Assembly (NCBI GenBank): GCA_964187785.1
Contig: OZ076409.1
Span: 55,616,001 to 55,680,000, forward strand
Source: Amphiscolops sp. MND2022
Taxonomy: Eukaryota
Length of the DNA: 64,000 nt
Reading direction: 5' to 3'
The notes under the pieces are model-generated. The model was not told the origin of the DNA. It worked only from the letters and a program-made list of their open reading frames with translations, and did no database searches. Shown here piece by piece: positions 1-42,350 of this stretch. The position numbers and the translations under genes were made by a program. Position 1 is the first letter of the stretch. The number at the start of each line of letters is the position of its first letter.

Positions 1-2
1 TG

Positions 3-2126: not shown

Positions 2127-2189
2127 TACACATTTTAATTTATACATTGTATACATATTACAAGCCGTTAAATACGCATACATAATACA

Positions 2190-14579: not shown

Positions 14580-16960
14580 TCAGGTTTTAGCTGTTTTAAT
14601 ATTTCTCTGCAAACTTCTATACTTTATAGCTCAAATACCGTTAGTATAATCTTCTCGAAAAGTTGTTTGATACTCTTATATTCATTTTTGCAGAAAATTG
14701 CTCTCAAAGATCTCCTCTGTATACTTTCAATTTTTTTTCAAATTCGTTTTTGCGGCACTGCCATAGAAAAGCAAACGATTTGCGATGATTGATTTTGCGA
14801 GCTATAGAAGTTGAGAAGGCAGGTAACGGGATACATATCTCTGACTTATATCAGAAGTATATCACACCACTGAATTTATTCAATTTTTTGTAACATGTTC
14901 AATATGATCACGGAGTGTAAGTTTACTGTCTAAGTAAACTCCTAAGTATTTAGCCGAATCCTTTATTGAAAGCTTCTGTCCCAGTAAATCTCATCAGGCT
15001 GTAGCAATGATCCCGTTCGTTTTCCTGATTTAAGGATTGAGGTGTCGTCAGCAAAAACAGCAATCTTATTGCTGTTTTGAGCATAGCTTGCTAAATCGTT
15101 GATATAAACGAGGAAAAGGAACGGCCCGAGAAAAGATCCTCGAGGAACACCGGTTGAAATTGCTTGGTATTCTGTTTTCTTTTGATTGACTTCCACAAAT
15201 TGTCATCTATTACTCAAGTAATCGTTAATCAATTCGTAAATTCGACCCCTAAATTCGTACGAGTGCAGTTTGTTCAACAGTAACCGTATGATCCAACGAA
15301 TCGAATGTTTTCTTCAAGCCCAAAAAACAAGCATGACCAGAGCTTTTTTGTCCATTTCCTCTATTATAGTCGGTGACACTAGTAATGGCATGCACACATG
15401 AACGTTTAGCTCGAAATCCAAATTGCATAGGTGAAAATAGTTTATTGGTATTGAAGAAACCCGAAAGTCTAGAATAGAGAAATTTTTCAAGTAGTTTACT
15501 TATTGAGCATAGTAAAATAATAGGTCGATAGTTTTCTGCCCTAACTCGCTCGCCTTTTTTGAATATTGGTACAATTTTTGCTACTTTTGGACAATTTGGA
15601 ATTTTTTGCGAATCTATATATTTTGAATGCCTTCACTATGTCTTTTTCAACTATGGGGGTGCAGCATTTTAACATTTCTTTGCCAATTCCATCTTGACCC
15701 TACCTTTTTTGTTCTTTAAATTTTGAATGATTTTTAAGACTTCAGTTTCATCAGTTTATGATAAAACCATAGATTTGACATTGTTTGGAACTTTTACGGG
15801 TTCGTCGTCTATCGGATTTTTTGTTGACAAGACAGAACCAATGGTTACAAAATACTCATTCAATTTTTCGATATCTGGAACTTCAGGTTGCTTTTGGTTA
15901 TTTGATAGCTGATTTTTCAAGTTTTTGCAAATGGTTCTGCTCAATGGATTGGGTCCCATTTTTTTGAAACAGCAGTCTCCCTTGGCATTTCGTATTAGTG
16001 ATGTTGTCACGTTATGTTGTTTTTTGTACTTTTTGTTATTGTTTACACTAGGCGTCATTGTCCAGCTTGGAAACAATTGATTTCGTTTAGTAATGGCGTT
16101 TTTATTGTATTGGTTATCCAATTATCAGGATTTTCGTTCGTTGTGATTTCTGTTACAAGTGCGAAACGCTCAATGCAATCTAGTAAACATCTTGAAACTT
16201 GTTCAATATGATTCAAGTTGTTTCTATCTAGCTTCATTAACCTTTGTTCTAGGATAAAATTTTTAGAGCATTGTCGTCTTTAATGTTTTCATGTTCCTAG
16301 AATTTCGCTGAGAATACTTACTGTTACTTCAATTTTCACATCAGGAATTTCACCTAGTACTGTACAATGATCACTCATTGTGTTTTTTTTCAGTTTGATG
16401 GACCGTCTGGTAATTAGTAATGTAATGATCTAGACATGTTATCCTATTTCAAGACCATTGACCGCAATACATTTTAATCATTGTCCCCCGTTGAGTGTTC
16501 TGCAGATTTGTCATTTTGACGAGGAGCTTTCTGTTGCATACTATCTTCCCCAGGTGAAGTTCGTAGTCTCTTCAAGTAATTGTTGTTGCTACAATGTTTT
16601 TGGTGAGGAGTTGTCGCAGCCATAGCGGTGGTTTTTTCGATGGCCTTTTCCTTAATGTCAACAGCTTTTTTGGAATTGTCGATCACGCTCCGAAATTGGT
16701 TGTCTTCAGTTTTCGTGAAAATTTTCACCTCACAATTGTAGGTTGAAGCGATAAGACCTTCTCGTTTGGCACGTTCAATCATTTCTTTTTGGCAGCGAGG
16801 CAGTCGTTCTTTCATGAATATTGGTCTGGTGTTAATTGGAAGTTGTTTCCTGCAAGCCATGATTTTCTGCCATACAGCTCGTTTTTTTCATCAAAGTACA
16901 AAAAAGTGACAATGATGGCTGGAGGAAACCTTTCATCACGCCAACTACTGAGATTTAGCT
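14580..16960 (-). mobile_element. Degenerate non-LTR retrotransposon (LINE, CR1/L2/Jockey-like): ORF1 tail plus endonuclease-RT remnants
   Basis: RT motifs TGVPRGSFLGPFLFLVYINDL and VFADDT (14963-15196), KYLGVYLDSKL (~14930-14960), YRPI (~15520), endonuclease-end SDH (~16370), and an ORF1-like IFMKERLP segment (16474-16860). Many stops and frameshifts. Confidence 0.85.
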
Positions 16961-18274: not shown

Positions 18275-19085
18275 TTCACAAAGTTTATTTAGCATCAATA
18301 GTGAACAAATTCCACCATCGATGTCATCAAAATGTTATATATAAAATTACGTGACACAAGTCCTAAAGAGTAGCAAGTTCTTGAATGATTGTTCCGAAGA
18401 CGGGATGAAGCATTGAACTTCGGACCCAACGCAAACTCTAGGCTGCGACATCACTTGTATTATTTTACCATCATTATTATAATATTCTATCAACTCTAGA
18501 TAAGCTGAATTAACATGCAACTCTGGAGCTTTTGAATTCAAAGATCAGCAACTTTGAAACCTGAAGTCCCAAAAAAATGCACTTCGATGTCTAGTTGAAA
18601 AACGTACGTACTACGGAAGTATTTATAGAGACTATATATCACAGAAAACACAATTGTATTACAACTGATGTTACTTGTATCAGAAGTAATTTAATGGCCA
18701 CTTCTCTATAAAACCATATATATAATAAACAACAATACAACAGTTTTCGAACGCTGGATTTGCAGGTGAGACAATTCCTTGGTAACATAGTAAAAGCTAA
18801 GCACCAGAAAAGTCCACTGAATAATCATCAAACTTAAAGAGGAAGGTTATCTCTGCCTATGAATTAGCCTTATTTATGAACAACGTGAGCAATTACAATA
18901 ATCAGGCAGGTATGGAAAGCTTTGGACGCGAATATGACTGGAGGTAATTCAAAAGTGAAAAAGAAGACTCAAAAGTAGATTTAGTTCATCAATTATCTAT
19001 GAAGGTCAAATTCTGAAAAAAGATAGAGGTGGAAACTCATTGATGCAAAACAAATCATGCTCCTTGACTGAAATGTCATTACAAG

Positions 19086-20807
19086 TGTGATAATCCTCTA
19101 GGGACTCTGCATCTGACTCTTCGTCTGAATGAATGGTTACATCTACGTCGGATTCACTTCGAAACAAAGGCTTTGCAGGTTGTTTTAATTCTGTCATTTT
19201 AGATGCCCTAACAGGATTACTCTCATCTTCAGATTCAGTACTTTCTATATTGGATGCATGAACTCCTATAGACTCTTTACTTTTAGATCCCGTGGGTTGT
19301 ATATCTTCAATTTCATTAGTTATAGACCTTGGGTTCGTTACTGTTGAGTGACTCCTGTTTGATTTTATCTCTTTCAGAATAGCATCTAGTTTATTCTCCA
19401 TCTCCTCTCTCATTTTTTCAATCCTATCATTGTTTCTCTGATCAATAATCTCGGTCCAAGCTTGCATCTCAGAACTAGCTTGACTGGGTTCGACAAGTTG
19501 ATTTCCTGGGTTCGGTTCTCCTAAATCTCCATCAACATTTAAGTTGGAATTAGTTAAAGTTATATTACCTGTCTCAGAAAAATCAGTTCTAGTTCTATCT
19601 TCCTCTCTTTCTGGGGACGGGGTTGCCAGTCTCCTTGATCTTCTACTTCTCTTATTCCCCATCTTGTTGAGTAAAAAACTAGTTATGGTTGTTGGGGAAG
19701 AATTTTAATTAGTTTCAGATTGGAAAATCCAAACTTCGGGAAAACAATGAAAATGAAAATGAAGACAAAATGAAGGCAAAAGCTTGTATGAATTGATTCA
19801 ACTGCACTTTATGAAGGTTATCTCAATTATATCTTTATCACAAATCACCCTTTTCTCCAAAATAAAAACAATGACAACCATTTTTACAGATATCATAGAA
19901 TCCTGGAAAAACCCAAATATAGTATGATATCATAGTTGCGTAATTCTATTTATAACATCATCACAATGATTCGAATGCACTCAAATGAACTTAAGACCCT
20001 AGAAAAATGCTTTAAAACCGTAGATATAACATCACGAACAGCATAAATTGTATAACGAATGAATACTGCATTATATCGCCGAAAACCGTATATCACCGCA
20101 TATGCAACATATCTCGCAACGTATGGTAACGTATAATGTATATGAACATCGTTGTCAATACGCAAGTTGATGTATATGCTACTTCATTCATTACGCACAA
20201 TCATTCATAATTCAATTATGTGAAACGTATGTTAATGCGTGGTGACTGTCCACAAAACCGCATAGTGACGCATAATGGTAGTGAAAAAAGGTATATCACC
20301 GCATGCTTTTAATACTTAAACGTGCATAATGATGTATGTTCAAAAGCGTATATTGACGTATACTCGTTAAGCTGAAATGCGTATGTTGGTGTATACTTGC
20401 CAAGCCAAAACGTGTATGATGACGTATATACAATAAACCTAATTATGCGTGATACCGCTCTTTGGTATTTACAAAATGTTCAATGACACATGTTAACCAT
20501 CTTGATAACAGTATGATCGCGCATAATGATAAATCAAAAACCACGAGTAAGTCATTCTTATGCAATCACAAAACATATGTTACGTCCATGAATGAAATTT
20601 AAACGGGTCAAGGAGCTTTGAAGGGTCTGCAAAAACAATTAAAAAGGAAACATCCTCAATAAGAACAAATGGATGATCATCAAGATACGGTAGAAAATGT
20701 TATTAGAATGAGTTTTGATGGGTTTAAAATGTTTGTTTCACCAAGTTTTGGGGTTGTTCCTTTTTAGTGCTGCTCTACGGAACCATCGCATCTTGGTGGA
20801 TGCGACA
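19086..20807 (-). repeat. 3' LTR (1722 bp)
   Basis: Matches 34230-35951 at a constant offset of 15144; I counted five substitutions by eye. Confidence 0.97.
20087..20524 (+). promoter_or_regulatory. Phased CGYAT-N5-CGYAT motif array in LTR U3 (copy at 35231-35668)
   Basis: Units, some degenerate, start at 20087, 20120, 20161, 20194, 20226, 20259, 20290, 20323, 20347, 20380, 20413, 20446, 20477 and 20510; spacing is mostly 31-33 bp. Confidence 0.8.
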
Positions 20808-21792
20808 GTCCCGCATTTTTAAAAAGGAACAATGCCGCCTCAAATCCATGGACGAATGCCCTTGATCTTATGGTTCTCTCTTTTACTGTCTCGCCCTCAT
20901 ATTCCGTTGCAGCTAGATACTCGCCCAGGGTCTCCAATGCTATCTGATCGTAGCATTTTCCACATAGTTGACAGTAACATGCGACGTTTGCCATCACTGT
21001 GGGTATCAGTCGAATGCTGTGTCTTTCCTGGGCTGGGATTAATAAAGAGTTAGCACTGTGAGTGGTATTGAAAGGGAACCCGAGTTGAACCATAGGTTGC
21101 ATCAACTGTGTCACTCTTCGAGTCTCATGACTAGTCTCACCGATGTTAAGGGGGAACAACATTGGAGATAAGTTGAATCCCACTACATTTCCCTGCACAG
21201 TACTTTGTGGAGGAACTATATTCCCTTGTGTTTCTTGTTCCATCGGCTCATTTAAAGGCTGTTGTTGGATGCTTGTTAACTCGGGCCTATAGTTTGGCGG
21301 GTACAGAGGTATTGGGCGTGCAAGAATTCCTGAGTCATCAGAACTTCTCCTCTGGTTCGGTGGGACAATAGCGGTGGGTCGGCCATAACTATTGGTGGGT
21401 TCTCTACATCTGTCTCTTTGAGTCCAAGGGGATAAATTCCCTTCTTCAAATTCGCTGTCCACAAACGAATTTGGAGAGGCCACCTGCTCGCTTTGGGGGT
21501 CCCCGATCAAATTCATAAGGTCCCTTTCCAGTTGGGTTCCTGACGCAATAGTGGTTACATCTTGAGTCAGTGATTCGCTTGTACTCGGGAACAAAGTAGC
21601 TGTTGTTGCGCCCACAAATGCCGACATTAGATTGCTCCCAGATGTATTTATTCGAAACTTGTCATCTAGGTGGGTAATGTCTCCGGGGGCGAGGGAAAAA
21701 GAGTCTTCTGATCCGCTTGAAATATCCACCACATCGGGCGATATGGGGGAATAAAGATAGGCATCATCAATGTTGAATTGAGATTTATTCAT
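20764..21792 (-). CDS. 342-aa accessory protein (sense to gag-pol): disordered N-terminus, C-terminal CxCxxCxxC cluster and helical domain
   Basis: Intact ATG-to-TAA ORF containing VACYCQLCGKCYDQ. It reads through the PPT and stops inside the 3' LTR. Confidence 0.8.
   Translation of the reverse strand: MNKSQFNIDDAYLYSPISPDVVDISSGSEDSFSLAPGDITHLDDKFRINTSGSNLMSAFVGATTATLFPSTSESLTQDVTTIASGTQLERDLMNLIGDPQSEQVASPNSFVDSEFEEGNLSPWTQRDRCREPTNSYGRPTAIVPPNQRRSSDDSGILARPIPLYPPNYRPELTSIQQQPLNEPMEQETQGNIVPPQSTVQGNVVGFNLSPMLFPLNIGETSHETRRVTQLMQPMVQLGFPFNTTHSANSLLIPAQERHSIRLIPTVMANVACYCQLCGKCYDQIALETLGEYLAATEYEGETVKERTIRSRAFVHGFEAALFLFKNAGLSHPPRCDGSVEQH
20808..20823 (-). other. Polypurine-tract position (atypical TTTAAAAATGCGGGAC)
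   Basis: Immediately precedes the 3' LTR TGT on the minus strand; similar to TTAAAAACCGGGATGGA before the LTR of element 1. Confidence 0.6.
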
Positions 21793-23310
21793 TTTTTCAA
21801 AGTTACAGAAATGTTACTTGAAGTTTGAAATTTTGAAGGTTTTACAAGCGACTGATTTTCAGTTTAGCAAAGACCATATGGTGAAAATTCTACTTAAAAT
21901 TTCCTGACTTCACTGAAACCCCGCAAAAAACTTGAGTGTCATTGTAGCGTGGGGTCGACAAAGCCTTATATGGAAGTAAGGTTGATAAAACCTTATAAAC
22001 AAAGGTGTTTAGTCTGAGTTCTCTCCTTTAAGGTAAATAAACGAAGTAGGTGTAAGTTTTCCACACCTTCACCAATCGGAACTTTCTTTTGATCATCATT
22101 CAACTTTGTTCCAACTATAACTTGATTAGATGTAAACAAAAAATATCATGAGTTGAGATTTTACCGGGAGGGCAATTCAAAGATTTCATGGAGTTCCGTA
22201 TAAAAATGATCATGAACTTGTATTGATAGAATTAGCTACATGACTATTTTAAAGTTTTACAAAGGGAATAGTAAAATATTGGGTGTCCCGCACTTGAAAA
22301 GTGCGCAATTTCTTACTTCAAATATGATCAAACAGACAGTTCGTTTGTGAGATATCAATAGATTATTTTTGGTCCAAAAGTTTATTTCTAGGTACATCTC
22401 CACAGATTTCTCTTGTAGGCTTATAGTCCATCAACTGGTGTCTGTTTTTTCGTATCGACACTGTATTGCGTATGTTTATCTAAAGTTCTGCGCAAATGCG
22501 CATAACCACCATCACTGAGTGTGTGTATTAGCGTTGCATAATCGTATCACAGCAGCAAGCCATCAAATGAATAATCTCGTTGATTACATAATGTTCGGCG
22601 TAGTCATTCCACTGCAATAGTAGATATTAGCACGTGTTTATACTAGTCATATTTCAGCATAATGTCGTACAATCTGTATCCTTCTTTCCGCGGGTTGCCG
22701 CATACTCGTAGACTATTATTACGTATGCTGTCGTATATTATATATCTGTGAATCCGCATATTGACGTATATGCGCTGGCTGTAAATACGCATGTCACCGC
22801 ATATCAGTACTTTATCTCCGTGTATACACGTGTGCCTTCTGTGACAACTCCGCAGGTTACCGCATATGCCCTCAACACAAGTCCGCACGTTTGTGCTGTG
22901 GCAATTATGTTTGTTTTTATATTGCTTAAATGTCAATTACGTAATCAGACACTCTGGCAGGAAATGACTGACTTTTGAATCGACCAATCAGATTTAAGTA
23001 TATTGTATCTTTTGGTACAACCGCCATATTTATTTGCTTTTTGCCTTTCGTTTGAAACGCCACACCTTTACATTGCATCTTGATCATCACGATTTTACAT
23101 TGTATCTCTCAACGATTATCAACACTTTTTGAATCTTTAATTTTCCCAACTATCCTTTCTTCTCTTTTACTCCAGTTAGAGTTACAGTTCGAGTCCTTAA
23201 AGTCACAAATTTTACTCTTTTCCAATTATTAATTTGATATTGTTGATAAAGTTCTTCAATTTTGTACCCGATTTCTTTTTGGATAAACGTCAGTTGCTTC
23301 CAAATTCGTC
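21793..23310. promoter_or_regulatory. Divergent promoter region between the 342-aa ORF (-) and the six-exon gene (+)
   Basis: Head-to-head ATGs 1.5 kb apart; TATAAG on the minus strand (~21965-21970); CCAAT at ~22072 and ~22984; YY1-like CCGCCATATT at 23021-23030; central motif array. Confidence 0.55.
22656..22865 (+). promoter_or_regulatory. Phased CGYAT-N5-CGYAT array in the divergent promoter
   Basis: Units at 22656, 22689, 22722, 22755, 22788 (exact 33-bp period), then 22819 and 22851. Examples: CGTATGCTGTCGTAT, CGCATATTGACGTAT, CGCATGTCACCGCAT. Confidence 0.82.
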
Positions 23311-26300
23311 ATGGATCCAGGACACCACAGAAAGTCAAGGAAGGACCAAATTTCGCGACGGCAAGGAACTTCTTGGGGATACAAATCCCCGACTTCTACT
23401 ACACCCCGTAAGTACAACTTTGATTCTGTTCAAAATTTTCGAGTTCATTTCAATTTTCCGATCGGACTAATTTGAGCAATTAGCTGGCCAGGCTAATTAT
23501 TTTGAGAAAGTCGACTCTAATTTAGAATCTTGGTTTTGAATTTGTCGGAAGTTAACAACTTCCGGTTTGTTTCATCGGTAACTTCCGCTCATTTTTGAAA
23601 TAATCTGAAACCGCGTCCGGTAGTAGACTATCTTTTGAGTGAAGCTTTTACCTGTTGTGAATAAGCTCCTTATTTATTGTTAGCAGCAAATTCAAATGTT
23701 TTAGTTGAACTCGGAGCTACAGAGAAGTCACCTGCTCGTTCACCGACCAGAACTTACACGCCGCTGGAAGTTGCCTCCCCCAGTAAAACTGCAAATCTTA
23801 TTCAGACGACTGTCCACGACGAGAACGTCGCTACTATTCAGACAGCCGATCCACTTCTTGCTTCAAACATTGCCCCAGCTACTGGCAATGAGCAGGTTGA
23901 AGTGATCACCATTGAGAGTTCAACTGTTGCCTCAACTATAGAAGAAGTTGAGCCGGAGTCTCCTATTATCGACATTCTTAACGAGTCTCCTCCAACGCCC
24001 GAAAATCCCGTAAGTCCAATTCTCACTGGAATCACCATGATGAACATGGACCCATCTGATAATTCAACCGCTAATACAACTAATGTGGATCCAATTCTTC
24101 CTTCCGATCTGCAAATTTCATCACCAAAGTTGACGCAATTCCTCCTTTTATCACAACAAGGGACCTCCACTCGCCAAGGGGCGAAGAAACCTGAATTTCC
24201 TACTGATTTGGAAGAGGGAGATTTTGACATCACCATGGATACCACCCCCACTGAAAATCAAGGAGACGATCAACCTGGGTCAAGTGTCCCAAATATCAGT
24301 TTGACACGGAACGAACTTCTGGTAATCTCCAACGTTTTAGGGAGAGTCCCTACTTCTTTTTTGGGAGAAGAGATTACCCTAACTGGACCGGAAATTTCAG
24401 TGTCGGTGGTGGACAACCCACCAAATCCTCCTCAACGGGTTAATCCTTCGATGGAGAATAACTTGCCGGGAGATAGCTACGTTTACCAAGAGCAAACTGA
24501 GACTGATTTAAACGATGAGCCTGTAGTTCGCAACAAGAGGCAAAGGCCAAGATATTCCCTCAAAGGGAGTATGTTACGTAAACATCCTGTCTTGAAATTT
24601 TCGGCAACAGGACCTATCGATCGCGAAAAAACTCCACATAAATGGTGGTGCCGAGTGTGCAGATTAGAGCTTTCTTTAATGAGCAGAGGCGTCCTTGAAG
24701 TATTAGCACACTATAAAACTGATTCTCACCTAGTTCGAGAACACCGTATAAGGATGGACACACCAGGAATGCCTTTATACGACAAAAATGGACACGAATT
24801 ACAGGGTATTGCCCTTTCAGAAGCCAAAAAGATCGCAAAGGAAACATATCCGATTGTCCCTCAACTGGATCCTTATCGCCTCTTGGTAGGCCAGGACTCA
24901 TTACCCAAATTTGGTGCTGAAAAGAGTCCTATGGAAACCGTCATCTCTCAAATTTGCCTTCTTGAAATTGGACTCAGACGCGGCGGGGATCTTTCTTGTC
25001 TCTCCGATATCTTCGAGGAAGTCAATCGTTTTTCCAGCGAAGGGGGTCCTACTGTTGCTTTTGATTGGAGTCCCCACCGACTTTTCGTAAGTATCTTTCG
25101 CATTTGACAATTTCACATATACATTTATACCTAGTACGATCTTGTAACCATAATTATATTTTAAATAATGTCAGGCTACGTTTAATATATCATCTCTGAA
25201 AATGTTTATTGAATACCGACTTTGCTTTCCAGGGAATGATCACTCATATGTTCCGAGAGCTACTTAACTACTGTGTAACCAACATCACATCTAACGGGAC
25301 ATATTCTCTATCCCTAACACATCTTACAACTGAATCCAACCTCTACTTGGGATTCTGGTCAGGAAATGTGTTTCACCAAGTATGTGTTGGAACTGGACCG
25401 CGAGGATTTTTGATTCCCCGGAGGATTTTGACTTTGGTCTCATCTCTTATTAGCTTGTTCGAGACCCCACCTCCATGTGCCTGTCTAGTTGGGATGGGAG
25501 AAAGGTTGAATTCCTGCCTTGTATCTGCGCTTCCTGGTCAACAGCGTCCCAACTTGCTCAACAATTTCGGTGTGGAAGAGTTTGAAAGATGCCTTGCTTT
25601 GCCCACCGCAAAGATTATTGAAAGACATGATTACAAAACGATTATTGACTTTCTCTTACTTAAGCTGCGCACTGCCCTTGACAGGGATTGGCTGCAAAGT
25701 CTCCCTCTTCTACACAAAGTACGTGGTAGCATGTCAGTTTTGAAAATTCTATTGTTTTTTCCTTTTCATAATCTTATTATTTTATCTCTGTTCTGTTTCC
25801 AGTGCGTGGTGTCTCTACAGTACACCCTGAGTGAAGCTTCTTCTCTCATTGATTGTTTCTCCCGTAATTGGAATCGAATTCAGGACCATCTCACTCAAGT
25901 TTCTCGATTGCCGGCCTACCGATTTCATATGAGAGAAGTGAGTATATTTGATATAAATCTTTCGTAGGGTGATCTTATCCTCTTCAATTTTGGTATATCA
26001 TTTGGTTTCAGCCCAACACACTAGACGAATGTTTTCGTTTGGACACAGCGTACCTTGCGCGCCTATTCATCATTCGCTGTGTCATTGATCATTGTTAGTT
26101 CCCAATTTTCAACTATCTTGTTGTGTGGTTAAGTCTCTTTTTTACCATGCGATATCACATCCACACTGATGTACATTAGCAATTACTATTTAAATTTATC
26201 GTAATACCTCCTTCTTCATCATATTTGACGAACTTAGATGTTTGCTTCGTTTTTGTAACTCTTTCCCATATTTTGTATTCCAGTACTATCCGTAGGGAAA

Positions 26301-27984
26301 ATGAGTATACGGTATATCATTCACCGCATTATGACGTATAAGCGGCTCAACTCTTTCTGTATGGTGACTCATTATCAAGATTAGCATTGATAATTTGGTG
26401 TATTTCTAAAATTTGTCATCCTCGTATGTACGCATATGCGTCATACTAAAATCAGCATTGTTACGTATAGCACATACTGTTTGTCTGTAGAGATATAGGG
26501 CGAAGCTCGATTTCCGTTGGATAACGCATGATTACTGGCTGCAGATATGTATCATGACGCAGATTCAAACTACAAATTCCGCATGATACCGCATAGCTGC
26601 TGTTGATGAAAATGAGGAGTGACGTGTAATGAAATTCAGAATGCGTATGATGCCGTATAGTCGCCGTTGATAAAAGCGAGTAGTGACGTACCATGAAATT
26701 CAGAATGCGTATTATGCCGTATATCTACTGTCTGGAAAGATGCATTATCGCGGGTACTAGAATTATATTTCCGCGTAATAACGTATAATCGCTATCCAAT
26801 AATGCGTACAGTGATGTACATTGATCATTAATGGAGCTGTATATAGATGTTTATTCTCATGTATCTTCTGTTTAGACAATTCCGCTTTCTCCGAGGTGAA
26901 TCGTCGAGTCGATAACGGGTTCAGACTGTACAATCAATTTGCAGTTTTTACGTACAGTCAACTCCAGAATCTGTTTCATGACAGCTTCCTTGGAGATATA
27001 TCCGACTGGGATGGATATTTGGAAATTGACTTGACTAAACCTGATCTGCCGTTTAAAAGCCCGGCTGAGTTCGTCTTACAGCCTGATTATCATGCCTTGG
27101 TTGTTTCCAGTCATCTTCCGAGACCCAGTGTGTTTGTAGTACAATCTCTTGCGTTCTGCAAATCGTTTTGTGCTGCTTTGCTTAATCACGAGATTGTCAA
27201 GTCTAAACTTATCCGAGGTCTTTCATCTTTCGACTATGCTGTCATGTTAGATGGGCCTGAGAAGAATTACTTGTCTGCGATTGAAGATCTCACTAGTCAT
27301 TTCTTTTCCAGTGGATGGTTGTCTTCCAGTGATAAGGTTACAGCTGTAAGTCAGTACCGATCATTTGCCACCAAATTGCGATCTGAGGATGAGGTCAATA
27401 GAGATGATTGGATCAGATTTCTCATCAGCCACCATGAGATGCAGAGTCGTCCTGAGCTTTTGGATGTTTTCAAATTCGCTTGTCTTTGTTTGCCCCCCGT
27501 GGTTGCTGAGCCTGCCAAATTTTGTGTTTCTGTACCTGGACTGTTGTCTGATGTCAATACCTTTAACTCCGTAGTCCGTAGTCTACAGTTATCGTACGTT
27601 ACTGTCCCCAATGTCTCCAGTCTTTATAAAGATCCTAAGACTATCTGCCGAATCTTTCGACTGTTGGGAAGAGGTCCCGGGCTAATACGGGATAGAAAAT
27701 TCTCGATCTGGAGTTTTCTGAAGGGAAACGAGGCACGACGGGCAGCACTATACGAGAAAATGGAGCTTGCTTATAAAAAATCTGTTTTACAAGGGGAAGG
27801 ATTGCCTTTATTCTTGGATGTGCCGACCCCTAGCGCAAGCCGATCGCCAAGTACTAGCAGTTCTTCCAATTCCGGACCCAGGCTCGGACGTGTTTCTTTG
27901 GCTGTCTCACGTTGTGGGGGTGAAGAAGCTGCCTGTAGTTCTAAGAAGGTTGCTAAAAAGGCTGCTAAATCCAAGAAGAATTGA
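23311..27984 (+). CDS. Six-exon antisense gene, 1103 aa: BED/TTF-like zinc finger plus probable inactive hAT-transposase-derived fold. Exons 23311-23407, 23684-25086, 25233-25718, 25803-25937, 26012-26093, 26876-27984
   Basis: Five GT-AG introns (donors GTAAGT, GTAAGT, GTACGT, GTGAGT, GTTAGT; pyrimidine-rich acceptors) with phases 1,0,0,0,1. They join into one 3312-nt frame from ATG to TGA. Zinc-finger motif WWCRVC-x16-H-x5-H at 24643-24729. The hAT assignment is by motif resemblance only. Confidence 0.85.
26325..26819 (+). promoter_or_regulatory. Phased CGYAT-N5-CGYAT array in intron 5 of the antisense gene
   Basis: Units at 26325, 26358, 26454, then 26515, 26548, 26580, 26613, 26644, 26677, 26708, 26741, 26772, 26805 (31-33 bp period). 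A 64-bp higher-order repeat ATGAAATTCAGAATGCGTAT is present. Confidence 0.82.
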
Positions 27985-28178
27985 TCTTCAAAATTCAAAT
28001 CGTTGCAAACTACTCTTTTGTTTATTACACTTATATTTATTGTGTTTTGTGTTTGTCATATTCTAGCGTAAAATGCAGGAAGTTATACTTCAAGGAACTA
28101 GTATTAAAGTAAAGTGCAAAGTCACTGGAGTTCCGAAGAAGAAAGTTAAGAGAAAGAGAAACTTTGTCATCAGTCTTT

Positions 28179-31100
28179 TTAATATCTGAAAGAGTCTGAG
28201 TAATTTGGGTTAGGGTTAGGTCGTAGATTGTATCTTTCACCACGGGTATTTATAGGTTCTTCTTGCAATGGGGTATTTTGTGAATTCTCTGGGGAATTTT
28301 GTGTGTTTTTTGAAACATTTTGAGTATTTTCTGGGGTTTTTTGTATTTCATTGCTCGATGTATTATTTTGTTCTTTTTGGGTTATTTGGGTATTTTGATC
28401 ATCTTCACTGGTGTGTTGTGGAATTTCATCAGCTTGATTCTCATGATTTTGATCTGGTTCAGTGGTCTGATCCACTGGGCTCCCCCCACTATTTTTTGAA
28501 GATACTGGGGAGGGTGGGCGGCTATTGTCAGGTATTTGAATTGGGACATATTCGGTATCCTCAGTATTGTGTATTGCATCTGAGGGAATGTCATCAAATG
28601 GATTTGCTCCAAAATTCGTGTTCCATGATTGGGCATATAGATCATCATTTGCTATAGTCATTTGATCATCTTTTTGCCAGTCGGTTTCGCGAACAAAAAT
28701 GTCTGCTAAAGGGGCCTGCGGTGTGAATTTCCGCAAACGAATCCGATGTAGTAGTTGGGTTTTATTTGTGCCGAGTCTCCTCACAATGTAGTTATTGTTA
28801 GGGAGCACTTTTTCAACTTTATAAGGTCCACACCATCTGAATTCTCGGAATGGTATTTTCGTTGCTTGTGTATCAGCTTTTGGATTAAGAATATAGCAGT
28901 AATCTGTTGTTTCTAACGGGGCTGCTTTTGCTTTTCTATCGTAGTATGCCTTGTATTTAAGGTAAGATTGCATGATATTCTTTTTAGTTTGGTCTGAAAG
29001 TGTTCTCATGCGCTTTTGAATTTCTTCTGCAATATCAGTATGTGGTTGATACCTCGGATTTGGATTGTATCCAAGTTTGTAGTCAAGGATATTGTGTGGT
29101 ATGCGGCCATGGAAAACTCGTGAGGGTTCACAACCGAGTGATGCATGGTATGTTGTGTTATGATTAAGGACTGCTAGAGGAAGATATTTGTGCCAGTTGT
29201 TCCTGAATTCACCTGTGGCGGCTTTTAGGTGTGTTTTAACTGAGGCATGGGTTCTTTCTAAGAGTCCTATGGTTTGTGCATGTTTCATTGTGGCATGTTT
29301 CATTTCGATTCCAAGCACTGCCGCAATTTCATGAGTGACTTGTGCGTTGAATTGAGTGCCTAGATCCGTGATTATAGTTGTTGGAAGGTAGGTGTGTTTG
29401 CATAAGATATCCATTATGACTTTTGAAACTGCTGTTGCGGTAATTCGAGTCACAGGATAGGCAAACAAATACCTTGAGAAGACATCTATTGCTGTGATGA
29501 TGTGATCGTAGCCTCCGCTTGGGGGGAGGTTTGGCAAAATATCCATCTGTAAGATGTCTTCCGGTCCAAGGTCCCATTCGGGACAATTAAGGAGTTCGGT
29601 CCTGAGGAGATCATTGTTGATACGTTTTGTTTGTATACAAATCTGACAATTACTGACCCCTTTCTTTATGTATTTGGCCATACATGGGTAGTAATATTTT
29701 TGACGTGTTTCTTGAATCATCTTGGTAATTCCTGGATGGTTTGAGTTATGTCCATGGAGGGCTTGAAGTAGTTCTTCAAGAAGTTGGATTGGTAAGAGGA
29801 TTTGATAATGCGAGATCATTCCTGTGTCTGTATAGTATTTGCGTGTGAGAACTTCGTGTTTAATCTCGATTCGTGTTATGTTTTGTAAGTAGTGTTGATA
29901 TCTGAAATCGGAAGCTAATTCATTTTCATCAAACGGTTCGCCTTCTATTTTGGCTCTCAGGTTTCGAAGGACTATGTCATTGTTCTGTTCAAGGCGTATC
30001 CTCGCATTGTCCTTGAAGTGTCCAGAGGAGCAGGAGATCAATCCGGATGTAGGTTTGTGAAATTGTTGTAATTCAGAGACGTCGTTCTCTGGGTCATTGT
30101 GAGTTTCGTTTTGTGCTTGATTGCGAGTGTTTTGTTTTTCTTCCCAAAGTTGATTTTCATCGATTTCTTCATCAGGAAGGATGTAAATTTGTTCTTCTTC
30201 TACAATTCCAGTTGATTGTATATTCACTTCAATTGCTTTTGTATGAATATCGTTGCGAATTGTCATTTCGAGCTTCTCGGTTGGGTTACTTTCGGTTCTA
30301 GATAAGAAATCGGCGGCTGTGTTCATCGATCCAGCTACATGGGCGATTACAAAATTGTATTGTAATACATAATCGCATGCATTCCAAAGCGCTGGAGGAA
30401 TCATTTTCGTTTGAAAAAACCGGGTTACAGACCGATTATCCGTGAACACGATGACAGGGAAGGTACTCCCCCACATGAGGTGTCCGAACTCTACGAATGC
30501 AAAATATATTGAGAGGAATTCTTTTGCATAGATTGACATTTTCGTTTGTGTTGGATTGAACGTTTTTGATCCAAACGCAATGGGTGCGTAGGTTTTTCGT
30601 TTGGATTGGAGCTTCTGATTGGGATCGTCTTCAATCATGATGGCATATCCTGCAGCTGTGAAGCTTGCATCGGACATGACTATGAGTTGTTTGTCTTTCA
30701 AGGGTTGTTTCAACGCGAGTTGGCAAGAATTTCCCAAAAGTTGATTGAGGTTTGTAAAGTCTTCAACCAAGTTTGTAGGAACATAAATTTTGGAGGTTTC
30801 TTTGAGGAGTTTGAAAAACGGGGTGAGTCGTTCTGAAAGGTGAGGTATATAGTTTCGGTAATAATTCAAGAATCCGATATACCTTTGTAGTGCCTTTTTC
30901 GATTTTGGGAATTTGAGTTTTGCCAAAAAATCTTTCACTTTGTCGGCTTGAGGGGCAACTCCATCTGGTCTGATTGTGCGTCCTAAAAAGTCGACTTGTT
31001 TAACTCCGAAATGACATTTCGACATGGAGAGTTTCAGTCCGGCATTCCGGATGCATTCAAAAACGGTTTTTATGTTGATACACAATTGGTTTGAGTCGTT

Positions 31101-33119
31101 TGCTGCAATGCCTATATCATCGACATATTGTGCACATTGGTCCGCTTTTATTGCTCTGTCCAGATATTCTCTCATAAAGCTGGAAAAAGCTGAGAGGGAT
31201 CTGCTGAGGCCTTGGGCAAGGCGACGATAAGCAAATGTTCTGCTTGCAAAATTGAAAGCGAGCATTTGTATGGATTGATAATCTGCCATCTGTAGGCAAT
31301 GGTAAGCTTGGGAGCAGTCCAATTTGCAGAAAAGTTTTTTCCCTGCCATGTGTTGAGCTGCATCAGATAAAGTGCTTACCGGATGGTTGTTGTTTGCGTA
31401 ATCTTCAGTTATAAGATTATTGATTTTCCTGAGATCTACAAGGAGTCTGAGGCGCCCGTTCGGTTTGCGTTGCGCGAAGATCGGGCTAGCGTATTTGGAG
31501 AATGGTAAGGTTGTAATGATGCCATATTTATGGAGAAGTGCAAGTTCTACTGTGATGTCATCTTTCAAGTTTATTGGGGTTGGCAGACTTTGGCTGTAAG
31601 CTGGTCTGTCATCGTTTGGTGTTAGCTTTACTTTGAACTCACGATTTATGCCTATGTCAAAGCGATGTCGGGCAAAAACGTCGTGGAATTCGACGAGAAT
31701 TTCTTCAATTTCAGCTTGTTCAGTTTGACTGAGTGTTGTGTCGGACCAATCAAAGTTTGAGAGGAATGCTTTCCTGGATGATTCATTGTCATGTGGGTTA
31801 AGTTTTTCGAGTTCTTTTAGCTCTAGGAGTTCGTTGTATATCCGTTGTTGGATTGGAGTATATGTAGTTGGGTCGCCTGGGTCTTCTGGTGTAGGGAACC
31901 AGTACGACTCTTGTTCTGAGTTTTGTTGAGGTACTTTTAGTAGTTCGTTGATGTATACTTCTGTGGTTTCCTCATGTTGTATCATAAACGATAGTACCGA
32001 TGGGTCTATTGGTTGAATGTGTTTGATTTGTTCTGGAGTAAGAATTTTGAAATCTGCTAAATGGGTATCAAGGGTTATTGTATAGGGCAATTCCGAAAAA
32101 TTTATGATTTGATATCCAATAGCATTGTTATTAACTGTGCTAAGGGATGCAGTTATAAAAATACTATCATGGTTTTCGAATTGGTGTGAAGGGGTGACTA
32201 TTCCGGTTACATTATGGTCCATTAGATGAGGCATTTTGCTTGCTATGGCGAGTGTTTCGCCTGGTCGGAGGGTGTATGTATTTTCTGCAAACAATGGTGT
32301 TGCCTGCCTTATTGCTGTTTGGGTATCGGGTTTAAGTTGCATTGAAAGATAAGGAAAGGTTAGAATGCCTTGGGTGACATCGAAAATTGCATTGTTCCTT
32401 CGAAGGAAACACAGTCCGATTAGCGGATTTGGTAGGTTCTTCATAATGATAAAATTTTCCTTGAGCATGAAATCAGCTACTTCAAATTCTAGTAAGACTG
32501 TACCAGTGGGAACTTCTAATTGACCGTTTGCCACCATGATCTGGAAGTTAGGTGGGGGACCGGTTTCTTTGATAGCTTCATTTGCTAACAGCTTGATTTT
32601 ATTGAGGTCTTGTTCAGAAATGGCGCTTGTTAGGGCTCCTGTATCAATAAGACCGTCAAGAGTGAGTTTTTCAAAATCCATCGGTAAGTAGTACATGTGG
32701 CGTTTTCGTTTCAACGTTAAAGAGGTGGAGATTGGGAGATATTGCAAATTCCGTTCTTTGTCAAATTGTATGTGTTCTGTAAGATCTTCATTTAATAGAG
32801 GTTGTTTTTGATCATCACAAGAAGTTTTTATGGTGACGAGGTTTTTAATGGGTGAGTCTTGTGGGTGAATTTCGGGGTTTGAGTCAATGTCGGAGTGGGT
32901 TGGTTGCTCTATAAAGTAGTTGTCTGGTGCATCACGGAGGAGTTCGTATATGTCTTCAGATTGAGTTTTTTGTGTTGATTGTTGAGAGTTTTGTGTTGTT
33001 AAATCTGTTTGTGCAATGATTGTTTTTGTGATTTTAGGGCTCAGTTGATGCTGCCAGTCATCAGCTGAGTTTGGTTTATGTTGAGATTTGGTGTAAAGGC
33101 GTGGCGTTTCTAGTTTAAA
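28179..33119 (-). CDS. pol: Pol polyprotein (aspartic protease, dUTPase-like remnant, RT, RNase H, integrase), expressed by -1 frameshift
   Basis: Uninterrupted ORF with LIDTGA; YTLRPGETL..GIV..IINFS..TIT (dUTPase-like); YVDD; SDAS..FTDN (RNase H); HGHNSNHPG..CQIC zinc finger; D..D..E core; GPY. Confidence 0.96.
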   Translation of the reverse strand, partial: FKLETPRLYTKSQHKPNSADDWQHQLSPKITKTIIAQTDLTTQNSQQSTQKTQSEDIYELLRDAPDNYFIEQPTHSDIDSNPEIHPQDSPIKNLVTIKTSCDDQKQPLLNEDLTEHIQFDKERNLQYLPISTSLTLKRKRHMYYLPMDFEKLTLDGLIDTGALTSAISEQDLNKIKLLANEAIKETGPPPNFQIMVANGQLEVPTGTVLLEFEVADFMLKENFIIMKNLPNPLIGLCFLRRNNAIFDVTQGILTFPYLSMQLKPDTQTAIRQATPLFAENTYTLRPGETLAIASKMPHLMDHNVTGIVTPSHQFENHDSIFITASLSTVNNNAIGYQIINFSELPYTITLDTHLADFKILTPEQIKHIQPIDPSVLSFMIQHEETTEVYINELLKVPQQNSEQESYWFPTPEDPGDPTTYTPIQQRIYNELLELKELEKLNPHDNESSRKAFLSNFDWSDTTLSQTEQAEIEEILVEFHDVFARHRFDIGINREFKVKLTPNDDRPAYSQSLPTPINLKDDITVELALLHKYGIITTLPFSKYASPIFAQRKPNGRLRLLVDLRKINNLITEDYANNNHPVSTLSDAAQHMAGKKLFCKLDCSQAYHCLQMADYQSIQMLAFNFASRTFAYRRLAQGLSRSLSAFSSFMREYLDRAIKADQCAQYVDDIGIAANDSNQLCINIKTVFECIRNAGLKLSMSKCHFGVKQVDFLGRTIRPDGVAPQADKVKDFLAKLKFPKSKKALQRYIGFLNYYRNYIPHLSERLTPFFKLLKETSKIYVPTNLVEDFTNLNQLLGNSCQLALKQPLKDKQLIVMSDASFTAAGYAIMIEDDPNQKLQSKRKTYAPIAFGSKTFNPTQTKMSIYAKEFLSIYFAFVEFGHLMWGSTFPVIVFTDNRSVTRFFQTKMIPPALWNACDYVLQYNFVIAHVAGSMNTAADFLSRTESNPTEKLEMTIRNDIHTKAIEVNIQSTGIVEEEQIYILPDEEIDENQLWEEKQNTRNQAQNETHNDPENDVSELQQFHKPTSGLISCSSGHFKDNARIRLEQNNDIVLRNLRAKIEGEPFDENELASDFRYQHYLQNITRIEIKHEVLTRKYYTDTGMISHYQILLPIQLLEELLQALHGHNSNHPGITKMIQETRQKYYYPCMAKYIKKGVSNCQICIQTKRINNDLLRTELLNCPEWDLGPEDILQMDILPNLPPSGGYDHIITAIDVFSRYLFAYPVTRITATAVSKVIMDILCKHTYLPTTIITDLGTQFNAQVTHEIAAVLGIEMKHATMKHAQTIGLLERTHASVKTHLKAATGEFRNNWHKYLPLAVLNHNTTYHASLGCEPSRVFHGRIPHNILDYKLGYNPNPRYQPHTDIAEEIQKRMRTLSDQTKKNIMQSYLKYKAYYDRKAKAAPLETTDYCYILNPKADTQATKIPFREFRWCGPYKVEKVLPNNNYIVRRLGTNKTQLLHRIRLRKFTPQAPLADIFVRETDWQKDDQMTIANDDLYAQSWNTNFGANPFDDIPSDAIHNTEDTEYVPIQIPDNSRPPSPVSSKNSGGSPVDQTTEPDQNHENQADEIPQHTSEDDQNTQITQKEQNNTSSNEIQKTPENTQNVSKNTQNSPENSQNTPLQEEPINTRGERYNLRPNPNPNYSDSFRY

Positions 33120-34806
33120 TCCTTCGATGAGGATTGTTGGGGTCTTTCCATTTTTGGCTTGATTGGTTTTTTGGCTTGTTTGTATGCTTCTATGACTTTC
33201 TTTTGTGCCTCGGTGAGTGGCCATTTAGGTGGGCGGTTTTCCATATTGGCACCAAAATAACAATTTTCCTCTTCATGCCCTGGGGTGTTGCAGTTCTGGC
33301 ATTTTTCAGCCTCAGGGTCTTCCTCAAGTTTTCAAGTTTTCGCCGTTTAGCTAACTTGGGGCAGTCAGTCATCATATGGCCCGTTTCCTTGCAGTAACGG
33401 CACTGGTCATTTTTAAGAGTTTTGTCTGGTACTGTTTTGGGAGTTTGTTTCTTGCCTTTATCCGTTTGTTTTTTGTCAGTTTTTTCAGTGTTTTGGTCTT
33501 TTTTAGTTACGGTCATTTGAGTTTTGACAAGGGGTTCGTCTGCCTCTAGACCGTTAAGTTCCATTTCGCGTTCTAGGTGTTTAACGATTTGGTCATAGGT
33601 GCCATTTTCAAGGTATGCTTGATTAATGGACTTCTTTAAATGGGGAGGCATTTTAGCATAGAGTAGATTCTCTATCATTTGATGTGCATTTTCCCCAAAT
33701 GCCTTTTCTGCGCTTTCTTGAAGTTCTTCAAGGAAGTCAGGGAGTTTTTGATTTTCGGGTTGGAACGAAAGTCTGTGAAATCTGTGTTTTGCTGATGCAC
33801 TAGACTCCGGTTTTACATATTTCCTGCGAAACACCTTCAAGATGTCTTCCAGTGTGGTATTGGGGGTTCTTTGTATGTTTTTGAATGTTTTGAGTGCCAA
33901 GCCTCTGAGGTGTGCATGAAAATGATTGATTTTCATCTCCTCTGTGAGGTTGGGTTGCATGCGAAGAGTTGTATGAAATAGGTCTTCAAAGTATTCAAAT
34001 TGTTCATTTTTCTCATTTTTGCCATTAAATGTAAGTGTATTTTTGGGATGAAAGAGTGATTGTGGAGTATTTTTGTTGGCTAATTTCTCTATTGCGAGTG
34101 CAATTTGATTAACTGGGTCGAGTGGTTTGGTTGTTGATGTTGATGTGTTTTGGTCTGCGCGGGATCCTAAGGTATCATTAAGTTTTTGAGAACTTTGTCT
34201 ATGGAGTTGTCGGTTGGCTCCTGTCACCATGTGATAATCCTCTAGGGACTCTGCATCTGACTCTTCGTCTGAATGAATGGTTACATCTACGTCGGATTCA
34301 CTTCGAAACAAAGGCTTTGCAGGTTGTTTTAATTCTGTCATTTTAGATGCCCTAACAGGATTACTCTCATCTTCAGATTCAGTACTTTCTATATTGGATG
34401 CATGAACTCCTATAGACTCTTTACTTTTAGATCCCGTGGGTTGTATATCTTCAATTTCATTAGTTATAGACCTTGGGTTCGTTACTGTTGAGTGACTCCT
34501 GTTTGATTTTATCTCTTTCAGAATAGCATCTAGTTTATTCTCCATCTCCTCTCTCATTTTTTCAATCCTATCATTGTTTCTCTGATCAATAATCTCGGTC
34601 CAAGCTTGCATCTCAGAACTAGCTTGACTGGGTTCGACAAGTTGATTTCCTGGGTTCGGTTCTCCTAAATCTCCATCAACATTTAAGTTGGAATTAGTTA
34701 AAGTTATATTACCTGTCTCAGAAAAATCAGTTCTAGTTCTATCTTCCTCTCTTTCTGGGGACGGGGTTGCCAGTCTCCTTGATCTTCTACTTCTCTTATT
34801 CCCCAT
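33110..34806 (-). CDS. gag: Gag; 562 aa once an 8-bp duplication at 33324-33339 is removed, frameshifted as assembled
   Basis: Capsid-like TFNGKNEK..FEYFEDLF..HLRGLALKTF; knuckle CRYCKETGHMMTDC; a second knuckle CQNCNTPGHEEENC in the shifted frame; ends GAT TTA AAC TAG. Confidence 0.9.
33113..33119 (-). other. -1 ribosomal frameshift slippery heptamer T TTA AAC
   Basis: X XXY YYZ in the restored gag frame directly before the gag TAG; a -1 shift enters the pol frame (TTT AAA CTA GAA). Confidence 0.85.
34212..34229 (-). other. Primer-binding site TGGTGACAGGAGCCAACC (tRNA-Leu-like, tentative)
   Basis: Begins TGG directly after the LTR terminal CA. The first 12 nt resemble the complement of eukaryotic tRNA-Leu 3' ends (TGGTGTCAGGAG) with one mismatch. 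Confidence 0.75.
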
Positions 34807-35951
34807 CTTGTTGAGTGAAAAACTAGTTATGGTTGTTGGGGAAGAATTTTAATTAGTTTCAGATTGGAAAATCCAAACTTCGGGAAAACAATGAAAATGA
34901 AAATGAAGACAAAATGAAGGCAAAAGCTTGTATGAATTGATTCAACTGCACTTTATTAAGGTTATCTCAATTATATCTTTATCACAAATCACCCTTTTCT
35001 CCAAAATAAAAACAATGACAACCATTTTTACAGATATCATAGAATCCTGGAAAAACCCAAATATAGTATGATATCATAGTTGCGTAATTCTATTTATAAC
35101 ATCATCACAATGATTCGAATGCACTCAAATGAACTTAAGACCCTAGAAAAATGCTTTAAAACCGTAGATATAACATCACGAACAGCATAAATTGTATAAC
35201 GAATGAATACTGCATTATATCGCCGAAAACCGTATATCACCGCATATGCAACATATCTCGCAACGTATGGTAACGTATAATGTATATGAACATCGTTGTC
35301 AATACGCAAGTTGATGTATATGATACTTCATTCATTACGCACAATCATTCATAATTCAATTATGTGAAACGTATGTTAATGCGTGGTGACTGTCCACAAA
35401 ACCGCATAGTGACGCATAATGGTAGTGAAAAAAGGTATATCACCGCATGCTTTTAATACTTAAACGTGCATAATGATGTATGTTCAAAAGCGTATATTGA
35501 CGTATACTCGTTAAGCTGAAATGCGTATGTTGGTGTATACTTGCCAAGCCAAAACGTGTATGATGACGTATATACAATAAACCTAATTATGCGTGATACC
35601 GCTCTTTGGTATTTACAAAATGTTCAATGACGCATGTTAACCATCTTGATAACAGTATGATCGCGCATAATGATAAATCAAAAACCACGAGTAAGTCATT
35701 CTTATGCAATCACAAAACATATGTTACGTCCATGAATGAAATTTAAACGGGTCAAGGAGCTTTGAAGGGTCTACAAAAACAATTAAAAAGGAAACATCCT
35801 CAATAAGAACAAATGGATGATCATCAAGATACGGTAGAAAATGTTATTAGAATGAGTTTTGATGGGTTTAAAATGTTTGTTTCACCAAGTTTTGGGGTTG
35901 TTCCTTTTTAGTGCTGCTCTACGGAACCATCGCATCTTGGTGGATGCGACA
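34230..35951 (-). repeat. 5' LTR (1722 bp): U3 motif array, TATAAATA at 35091-35098, AATAAA at 34952-34957, Gag ATG at 34806
   Basis: Matches 19086-20807, has TG...CA ends and is followed by the PBS. Confidence 0.97.
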
Positions 35952-35980
35952 ACAAGTAAACAGACAGTTGCGCGTATTAG

Positions 35981-36265
35981 ATTACGATGAATGCCAAGAC
36001 GATCATAACACGGTGTGCGATGACATTTATGCTATCTGTGTCAACAGTGAAGGAAGTTTCCACTGTGAGTGCAATCAGGGATACTGGAGAGCTGATGACT
36101 CACAATCATGTGAAGATTGGGATGAATGTAAATGCGGCCTGAACAAAACTGAATGCGACACGTTTATTTGTGGACAGTTTCGTGTGTGTACAAACACTCC
36201 CGGCTCATTCACGTGTGATTGTCAAGAAGGATATGCAAACGTTGTCGCTAGTCTCATTTGCGTAG
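35981..36265 (+). CDS. Host gene exon with two cbEGF domains
   Basis: Acceptor attag at 35980 and donor GTGAGT at 36266, phase 1-1. Reads DYDECQ..CVNSEGSFHCEC..DWDECK..CTNTPGSFTCDC. Confidence 0.9.
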
Positions 36266-36668
36266 GTGAGTTCAGCCAAGCTGAAGACAGAACACTGAGA
36301 GGGTTTGATTTTGGGCCGGACGCTTTCGCTTAATAAATGATGCTCGCCAAAATCAACCTGTGTTCAAAATGAGCTCAATGGCTGCTCTGGAAATTTTAAA
36401 TTATTTCGAATCACAGAAAATACAGCTCTTTTGCGTAGAATCTCTTTCATAATACAGCGTTATTTGATCCCTTTTGTCTCAAAAAAAAAGTTTTTTGGAC
36501 TCGATTATGTAACAGATAGTTTTACACCTTTCGACCATAAACTCAATCCGGAACTAAGTAAGAGAGCATCAATCATCTGACTCTTGCAGCAACCGGGTAA
36601 AACACCTGATTCGAACCAAGATTCAAAACTACTGATCACTAATAATATTTTAAACGCGTTTCATTCAG

Positions 36669-40400: not shown

Positions 40401-41379
40401 TTTGATTGACACGAAAAGTCCCAGAGTACGAATAGAGATACTCATGACTGGTACCAAAATTAAAGCATGTCATCAAATAATGGCAGATTGTGATGATCTG
40501 GCAGTTTGTTCAAAACTGGTACTAAACCTAAAAATACGAATATTTGTGTAATATAATATTCATTTTACATGATCATTATTAGAAAGGCAGAAGAACTCGA
40601 ATTAAATCAATTTTACATCGAAGGAAATTGTTTTGATTGACACGAAAAATCCAAGAAGTACGAATAGAGATATTCATGACTGGTACCAAAGTTAAAGCAT
40701 GTCATCAAATAATGGCAGATTGTGATGATCTGACAGTTTGTTCAAAACTGGTACCAAACCTAAAATTACGAATATTTGTGTAATATAATATTCATTTTAC
40801 ATGATCATTATTAGAAAGGCAGAAAAACTTGAATTAAATCAATTTTACATCAAAGGAAATTGTTTTGATTGACACAAAAAATCCAAGAAGTACGAATAGA
40901 GTTAGAATTTCTTAGAAATTTTATGCAGTTTACAAGAATGTTTGTTTGAAATTTCTGCGACAAAAAGTACAAAAGTTTAAAATTGCAAATTTTGACAAAA
41001 ATTAATCTAATTGGCACTTTTTTTTTATTTTCACCAAGTTGAAAAAATTTACATATCACTGGAACTTGTTTTGATTGACACGAAAAGTCCCAAAGTACGA
41101 ATAGAGATACTCGTAACTGGTACCAAAAATGAAGCATGTCATTAAAAAATGGCAGATTGTGATGATCTGGCAGTTTGTTCAAAACTGGAATAAACTGTGA
41201 AAAATACGAATATTTGTATTCGTACGAAACCACCTACACATCTTAAACGGTAAAGAAACAACTACCAAAAGGGGTACGTCAAAATTTAAATTCGAATATA
41301 CAGAGCCATACAACAAAAAGCTATTTATTTTAGCTTTAAATTTTAGATTTTTTTAGCTTATTTATATTTTAGATAGAGA

Positions 41380-42329: not shown

Positions 42330-42350
42330 GTGAAGGAGAAACCAACACAT

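Follow-up and report, generated by a model that had tools for sequence, protein, structure and literature searches.

A Ty3/gypsy retrotransposon with two extra genes

The window (the whole 64,000-nt stretch of DNA that was analysed) contains a full-length LTR retrotransposon on the minus strand (19086..35951), bounded by TG...CA ends and a 5-bp target-site duplication (19081-19085 / 35952-35956). The 5′ LTR (34230..35951, 1722 nt) and the 3′ LTR (19086..20807) are 99.7% identical, with 5 differences, and the element is young. The gag frame (33190..34848), which starts within the 5′ LTR, gave weak to moderate matches to Retrotrans_gag, Ty3_capsid, and zf-CCHC, and the pol frame (28179..33224) encodes protease, RT, RNase H, and integrase in gypsy order. 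Paired LTRs, the terminal dinucleotides, the duplication, and gag followed by this order of domains are all present, and the element belongs to Ty3/gypsy.

Some details of the element can be recorded here. About the first 190 codons of gag lie inside the LTR (34230-34848, 19086-19704), which would give an exceptionally long U5; the primer-binding site (34205-34229) falls within the gag frame. Position 19813, one of the five at which the LTRs differ, belongs to a candidate poly(A) signal in R. Sense-strand AATAAA hexamers directly after pol (28026 and 28041, minus strand) are possible early poly(A) sites, as is another at 26855 (minus strand), just beyond the intronic array described below. Calcium-binding EGF exons flank the element (9886-10476 and 35872-36333, plus strand), which indicates an animal host and insertion into an intron; a likely splice acceptor of the host gene follows about 25 nt downstream of the element.

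The stretch from pol to the 3′ LTR is 7.4 kb long and holds two extra genes, the sense ORF3 (20764..21792, minus strand), which has 342 codons and extends into the 3′ LTR, and a spliced antisense gene (23311..27984, plus strand). It also holds two arrays of a short motif, one inside an intron of the antisense gene and one between the two genes.

The antisense gene and its predicted product

The exons of the antisense gene are predicted at 23311-23407, 23684-25086, 25233-25718, 25803-25937, 26012-26093, and 26876-27984 (plus strand). Each of the introns between them (276, 146, 84, 74, and 782 nt) runs from GT to AG, and joining the exons gives 1103 codons without an internal stop. Intron 5 (26094..26875) was described earlier as 782 nt long against 74-276 nt for the others, and the splice model bears this out. 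The model is backed by two relatives without this intron, P0238 and P0346, in which exon 5 continues into exon 6 at the predicted junction, and by the matches to exon 3, most of which span about two thirds of a query containing intron 3 and exon 4. Intron 3 (25719-25802, 84 nt) is itself in frame and free of stops, and its retention would add 28 residues. The gene is conserved, with 65/498 related clusters for exon 2, 79/867 for exons 3-4, and 199 for exon 6. An exact-sequence lookup in a protein collection did not find three ORFs that lie within the intronic array or two forms of exon 6.

Two parts of the predicted protein appear to resemble an hAT transposase. In exon 2, a BED/Spin-doc-like zinc finger region (24505..24800, plus strand) has two invariant Cys and conserved His residues across 52 sequences. 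Pfam gave no BED match for this region, and its nearest named Atlas clusters were zf-C2H2_12 (0.92) and zf-BED (0.91), which we take as a lead only. Exon 3 (25233..25718, plus strand) was modelled with a pLDDT of 75.9 as an RNase H-like core and the start of a helical insertion. In a Foldseek search with this model, the top match was HIV integrase (E 6.7e-4), followed by Hermes (E 1.2e-3). Integrases align over approximately residues 20-108 only, whereas the Hermes chains align from residue 1 of the model (Hermes residue 153) over 105-154 residues with middling scores (Z 5.3-6.3; for the alignments over 150-154 residues, Z 5.3-6.0 and rmsd 5.7-7.5). Exon 3 thus appears to have an RNase H fold with a helical insertion domain as in hAT, on scores that are middling and all below a Z of 8.

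The catalytic site seems to have been lost. When the Asp was placed in the alignment by what we take to be the catalytic positions of Hermes, no column where strand 1 ends had it in more than 2 of the 57 sequences; after strand 4 it occurred in 20 of the 57, with Gly in this copy. There is no CxxH motif at 105-109 (compare Hermes H268, in excerpts of PMC4763223), and neither the DDE catalytic triad nor the CxxH motif of an hAT transposase is intact. For the C-terminal hAT domain, no conserved Glu was seen in the expected stretch. Exon 6 was modelled with a pLDDT of 84, and the model had no clear structural match. Atlas returned only weak unnamed clusters for this exon and a long-protein search with it returned no matches. 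No convincing Pfam family emerged for any of the exons or the relatives, and sequence searches of the PDB gave no matches. Among 208 inverted-repeat pairs flanking the gene, the best (73% over 30 nt and 77% over 22 nt) were not convincing. With hAT ancestry drawn from middling fold scores, an Atlas lead, and known hAT motifs, we regard the antisense protein with moderate confidence as a catalytically dead derivative of an hAT-like transposase. It would also be a plausible sequence-specific DNA binder of the hAT type; excerpts of PMC10368747 describe hAT transposases as binding repeated short sites through BED fingers, and Hermes as doing so as an octamer.

ORF3 was overlooked in the earlier note and is a second candidate binder. 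It encodes an acidic, P/Q/S-rich protein with a C-terminal Cys cluster that is possibly a transactivator, and it begins 433 nt downstream of an Inr-like site beside the intergenic array. It is retained in 12 close cluster members, and of the 12 contigs (matched by equal size) in this ORF3 cluster, 11 are also found among 14 in the corresponding close cluster for exon 2; one of those records may be this very copy. That the ORF3 product binds the arrays is nevertheless unlikely in our judgement: searches of Pfam and PDB gave no match, no DNA-binding domain can be recognised in it, and it might just as well act together with the finger protein as its partner.

The intronic array

The array in intron 5 occupies 26325..26853 (plus strand) and consists of 15 units of a 16-nt motif. 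Each unit is made of two CGYAT-like half-sites 10 nt apart, usually with an A/T tract in front. The earlier note had described a run of ten units with a spacing of 33/32/33/31/33/31/33/31/33, and exactly this run was recovered, with starts at 26515, 26548, 26580, 26613, 26644, 26677, 26708, 26741 (a weak unit), 26772, and 26805. Five further units stand in register with it (26325, 26358, 26421, 26454, and 26838), and the spacing over all 15 is 33, 63, 33, 61, 33, 32, 33, 31, 33, 31, 33, 31, 33, and 33 nt. The placement of the run at 26325-26819 has to be amended, however. The array is found there, but this span covers 14 units and the ten-unit run extends only over 26515-26820. Likewise, the array does not fill intron 5 as had been proposed, because 26094-26324 (231 nt) is without any unit.

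We searched intron 5 with a forward matrix that was trained on 13 sites from the LTR and intergenic arrays only (threshold >5 bits). It found 14 sites on the plus strand and none on the minus strand, compared with a mean of 1.01 and a maximum of 5 in 1000 dinucleotide shuffles of the intron. The units of the LTR and intergenic arrays are on the plus strand too, in agreement with the single orientation that had been claimed for all arrays.

The autocorrelation of the intron is strongest at lag 64 (z 9.5, against 3.5 for the 95th percentile of shuffle maxima). A recent 64-nt duplication is present within the array (26580-26723, 82.5% over 80 nt), and several units are degenerate. The duplication and the degenerate units would be expected of a neutral relic, an old promoter- or LTR-like segment that entered intron 5 in a single lineage and then grew, through slippage, as a repeat of 64 nt. 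Intron 5 is, in addition, short or missing in five related proteins, and its array stands at the same distance from a TATA-like box as that of the LTR. Against such an origin, the intron has no similarity to the LTR beyond the motif (pre-array regions, p 0.59; free positions, 0.29), and the identity of the motif cores within the intron (0.6) is far above that of the spacers (0.14 at lag 33, and 0.33 at lag 64 with the youngest pair removed), which drift alone would not yield. We therefore think it improbable that the array is such a relic. Deamination of CpG as the origin of the degenerate units was also considered and rejected, as 16 TG and 1 CA were found at 72 sites in units that are not independent of each other.

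A role of the motif in RNA, either in recruiting an accessory protein for export or packaging or in the splicing of intron 5, would suit the location of all three arrays inside the genomic transcript, in its pol-3′ LTR half. An accessory export protein has been reported for a nematode LTR element (excerpts of PMC10309623). We consider this role highly improbable. Neither strand of the intronic array folds better than shuffles (z 0.63 and 0.35) and Rfam gave no match for it, by which a structured RNA was ruled out; the 10-nt and 31-33-nt periodicity and the location upstream of TATA-like boxes suit a motif acting in DNA.

Comparison of the three arrays

The LTR array has 14 units in U3 (20087..20525, plus strand; 5′ LTR copy 35231-35669), and the intergenic array has 7 units between the divergent ORF3 and antisense gene (22656..22866, plus strand). 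A reverse matrix that was trained on intron 5 alone (threshold >10 bits) found 13 plus-strand sites within the 782 nt of that intron, 9 and 10 in the R/U3 parts of the LTRs, and 6 in the intergenic region. The genes of the element, 11.6 kb in total, had only 2 such sites, and so did the 47.1 kb of flanking DNA. On the minus strand there were 5 in the element and 4 in the flanks. The motif is thus concentrated in the three large non-coding regions of the element.

Between arrays, core identity was 0.63-0.68 and the free spacer positions were 0.28-0.29 identical, with 0.27 expected by chance; because core and spacer positions were classed from the very units that were compared, this contrast is partly built in. 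Spacers at the level of chance argue against a recent copy, with motif and spacing having been retained, and together with the dissimilar pre-array regions (p 0.59) they led us to reject the intronic array as a recent copy of the LTR array. The motif is constrained, phased, and in a single orientation across the three non-coding regions. The best half-site period was 10.65 nt in the intron and 10.85-10.9 nt in the other arrays, which amounts to about three turns per unit. Since these periods differ from 10.5 nt, the sites are not strictly on one helical face, and strict same-face phasing at 10.5 nt was rejected. CpG in the flanks is little depleted (observed/expected 0.84-0.97), which gives little reason to suppose that the protein acts against DNA methylation.

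A host factor is another candidate reader of the motif. The arrays would then be enhancers for a host transcription factor, for example of the bZIP, GMEB/SAND, or CpG-reading families, with the intronic array as a third enhancer or promoter and with the antisense protein acting in some other way. A U3 array upstream of a TATA box is the classical layout of a host-factor enhancer, and the LTR array has this layout, with a TATA-like box 141 nt off; several units also have a TGACGT-like core. The motif is, however, nearly absent from the 47 kb of flanking host DNA, strict spacing of 31-33 nt over up to 15 units would exceed the needs of most host factors, and the element maintains a conserved finger protein of 1103 codons. 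Taken together, we regard the host-factor explanation as unlikely. If it were correct, the arrays would be a tidy yet ordinary regulatory feature.

The explanation that we prefer, to which we give slightly less than an even chance, is that the antisense protein binds the arrays and regulates the element. The intronic array would then be a third array of double-stranded DNA binding sites after those in U3 and in the intergenic region. Its binder would be the product of the antisense gene, as an hAT derivative that retains a BED-like finger but no longer catalyses transposition. It would attach to the half-site pairs with their 10-nt offset and serve as the element's own transcription or anti-silencing factor.

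Promoter-like sequences beside the arrays

A promoter-like signal is found beside each array, which is new here and was overlooked in the earlier note. The LTR has a TATA-like box and an Inr-like site at 19925..19954 (minus strand; 5′ LTR copy 35069-35098). A candidate core promoter lies upstream of ORF3 at 22224..22252 (minus strand), 412 nt to the left of the intergenic array. The third, a candidate sense-strand core promoter in intron 5 (26167..26194, minus strand), is proposed post hoc from a non-canonical TATA-like box at 26194-26186 and an Inr-like site near 26168.

The TATA-like expression has one match in the LTR (19954, minus strand) and one in intron 5 (26194, minus strand). In both, the box stands to the left of the array, and the distances from box to first unit are nearly equal (141 nt in the LTR, 139 nt in intron 5), which differs from the 412 nt of the intergenic region. 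Allowing no more than one mismatch, the LTR box has 13 occurrences on this strand across the window, and a match within 3 nt of a given place has a p of ~0.0014 before allowing for the choice of first unit. A pattern of TATA-like box plus Inr-like site, defined post hoc after the sites had been seen, has 4 matches in the window, compared with 0.26 expected. They are in both LTRs, the intergenic region, and intron 5, and all 4 stand to the left of an array. The box alone is at the level of chance in the window (6 found vs. 6.0 expected), and loosening the pattern brings in four unrelated sites.

Gag comes after the site in the LTR, and ORF3 after the intergenic one. Following the candidate in intron 5, the first 12 ATGs give frames of at most 37 codons and there is no long ORF, so its RNA would be antisense to exons 5-1. 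Intron 5 may therefore hold an internal promoter that fires antisense to the zinc-finger gene. From the similar placement of the intronic and LTR arrays relative to their TATA-like boxes, we infer more weakly that the intronic array could serve this sense-strand internal promoter. As an equally weak suggestion, the resulting RNA, running antisense through exons 5-1, could damp the regulator gene and so provide feedback. The complete scenario, in which a captured hAT transposase that has lost catalysis self-regulates an LTR retrotransposon through phased arrays at three promoters, one of which is an intronic antisense brake, is possible but on balance doubtful.

Intron 5 in related proteins

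Related sequences were used to evaluate how general the intronic array is. Three proteins with 39-50% identity to exon 6 (P0179, P0169, and P0180) read through a short intron 5 of about 22, 39, and 42 codons, respectively, as counted by eye. This read-through test favours short introns, because it detects only those that are in frame and free of stops and long array-bearing introns are invisible to it. P0238 and P0346, on contigs of 220 kb and 1.0 Mb, have no intron 5. They lack it precisely, even though the intron is antisense to the genomic RNA, which suggests recombination with a spliced antisense transcript.

We also back-translated intron-side peptides and scored them for the motif near the acceptor, with some of the 35 relatives' peptides being exonic. 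Above 10 bits, 2 of 35 relatives scored compared with 0 of 122 controls, a weak signal; above 8 bits, the counts were 2/35 and 2/122, and P0118 had 1.7 bits. No related loci were found in metagenome, viral, or prokaryote genome collections, and a two-unit motif search of viral contigs gave no match. Judging from these sequences, the array is not general across the wider family and the accessory module appears to be lacking in some distant subfamilies.

Comparison with known regulators of transposable elements

The earlier note had likened the array to the targets of VANC proteins. Excerpts of PMC5735166 and PMC10398659 place VANC21 at arrayed motifs within introns and within intergenic and terminal regions, and the present element similarly combines an accessory gene with a short motif arrayed in intronic, intergenic, and terminal non-coding DNA. 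This part of the parallel stands, including the occurrence of the motif in an intron. The parallel does not extend to the host, and probably not to the protein, as VANDALs are plant Mutator-like DNA transposons and this is an animal LTR retrotransposon whose antisense protein resembles hAT rather than a Mutator-like VANC. For the protein, Pfam gave no match to the exons and the fold points to an hAT-like RNase H domain. Unlike in VANC/VANDAL, the units here are phased with unrelated spacers, the flanks are little CpG-depleted, and binding and demethylation are putative. Overall, the earlier interpretation is supported in part: the non-coding motif arrays and a plausible DNA binder stand, and oligomerisation of the protein and looping to the LTR are hypothetical.

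Transposases and their catalytically dead derivatives act as regulators (excerpts of bioRxiv 10.64898/2026.08.24.746577). As proposed for Spm TnpA and other transposase-derived regulators, the antisense protein would have lost catalysis and act on cognate motif-bearing copies. In the cases described there, the regulator stays in its own DNA-transposon family or is domesticated by the host, whereas here a retrotransposon is proposed to have acquired one; neither "retrotransposon" nor "LTR" is mentioned in that text.

Antisense genes are similarly placed in plant Retand and fungal Boty, in Retand together with arrays (excerpts of PMC11963269 and PMC7264820). [quoted passage not shown] It differs from the Retand lineage in having no match to TRP28 (PF04195) and in its animal, not flowering-plant, host as indicated by the flanking EGF exons. 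The hAT transposase Hermes shares the RNase H core with helical insertion and the presence of repeated short sites in the element, and the finger of the antisense protein may correspond to its N-terminal BED finger. In contrast to Hermes, the first catalytic Asp and CxxH are missing here, there are no convincing terminal inverted repeats, and the arrays are internal and phased where the sites of Hermes are subterminal repeats. Internal promoters occur in foamy viruses and Oikopleura Tor elements (excerpts of PMC8003144 and PMC4402516), which also have accessory genes near the 3′ LTR, although the candidate promoter in intron 5 differs from theirs in having no long ORF and in an RNA that would be antisense to the regulator gene. 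By analogy, then, the system resembles VANC/TnpA and Retand, and apart from Ty3/gypsy it is a member of none of these groups. Among the papers listed in searches of mostly open full texts, none showed an animal LTR element with an hAT-derived antisense gene or with arrays shared between LTR and intron.

In plant DNA transposons, sequence-specific self-regulation through arrayed targets is established. For gypsy elements, in contrast, excerpts of PMC7264820 and PMC11963269 state that neither the origin nor the function of such antisense genes and arrays is known, and the present element offers a candidate origin (an hAT-like transposase) and a candidate target (the 16-nt motif in three array locations). 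Dozens of diverged subfamilies allow the co-evolution of protein and motif to be examined. If regulation by the antisense protein is true, transposase-derived regulation would extend to animal retrotransposons, as a retrotransposon-borne counterpart of VANC/TnpA.

Other features of the window

Broken ORFs at 2104-4336 (plus strand) are similar to fusion glycoproteins of a Monjiviricetes family (E 1.2e-5 and 2e-19) and may belong to an endogenous viral or env-bearing element; there is a strong strand skew over 1-9000. A reverse transcriptase fragment at 15249-15632 (minus strand, E 5.6e-11) represents another decayed retroelement. An assembly gap of 200 nt of N is located at 53884-54083. Tandem and dispersed repeats outside of the element (57349-57880, 55105-55780, 40341-40901, 11725-13441, and 42054-45930) include 29-31-nt units in a 179-nt higher order, 174-nt and 232-nt units, and kilobase duplications.
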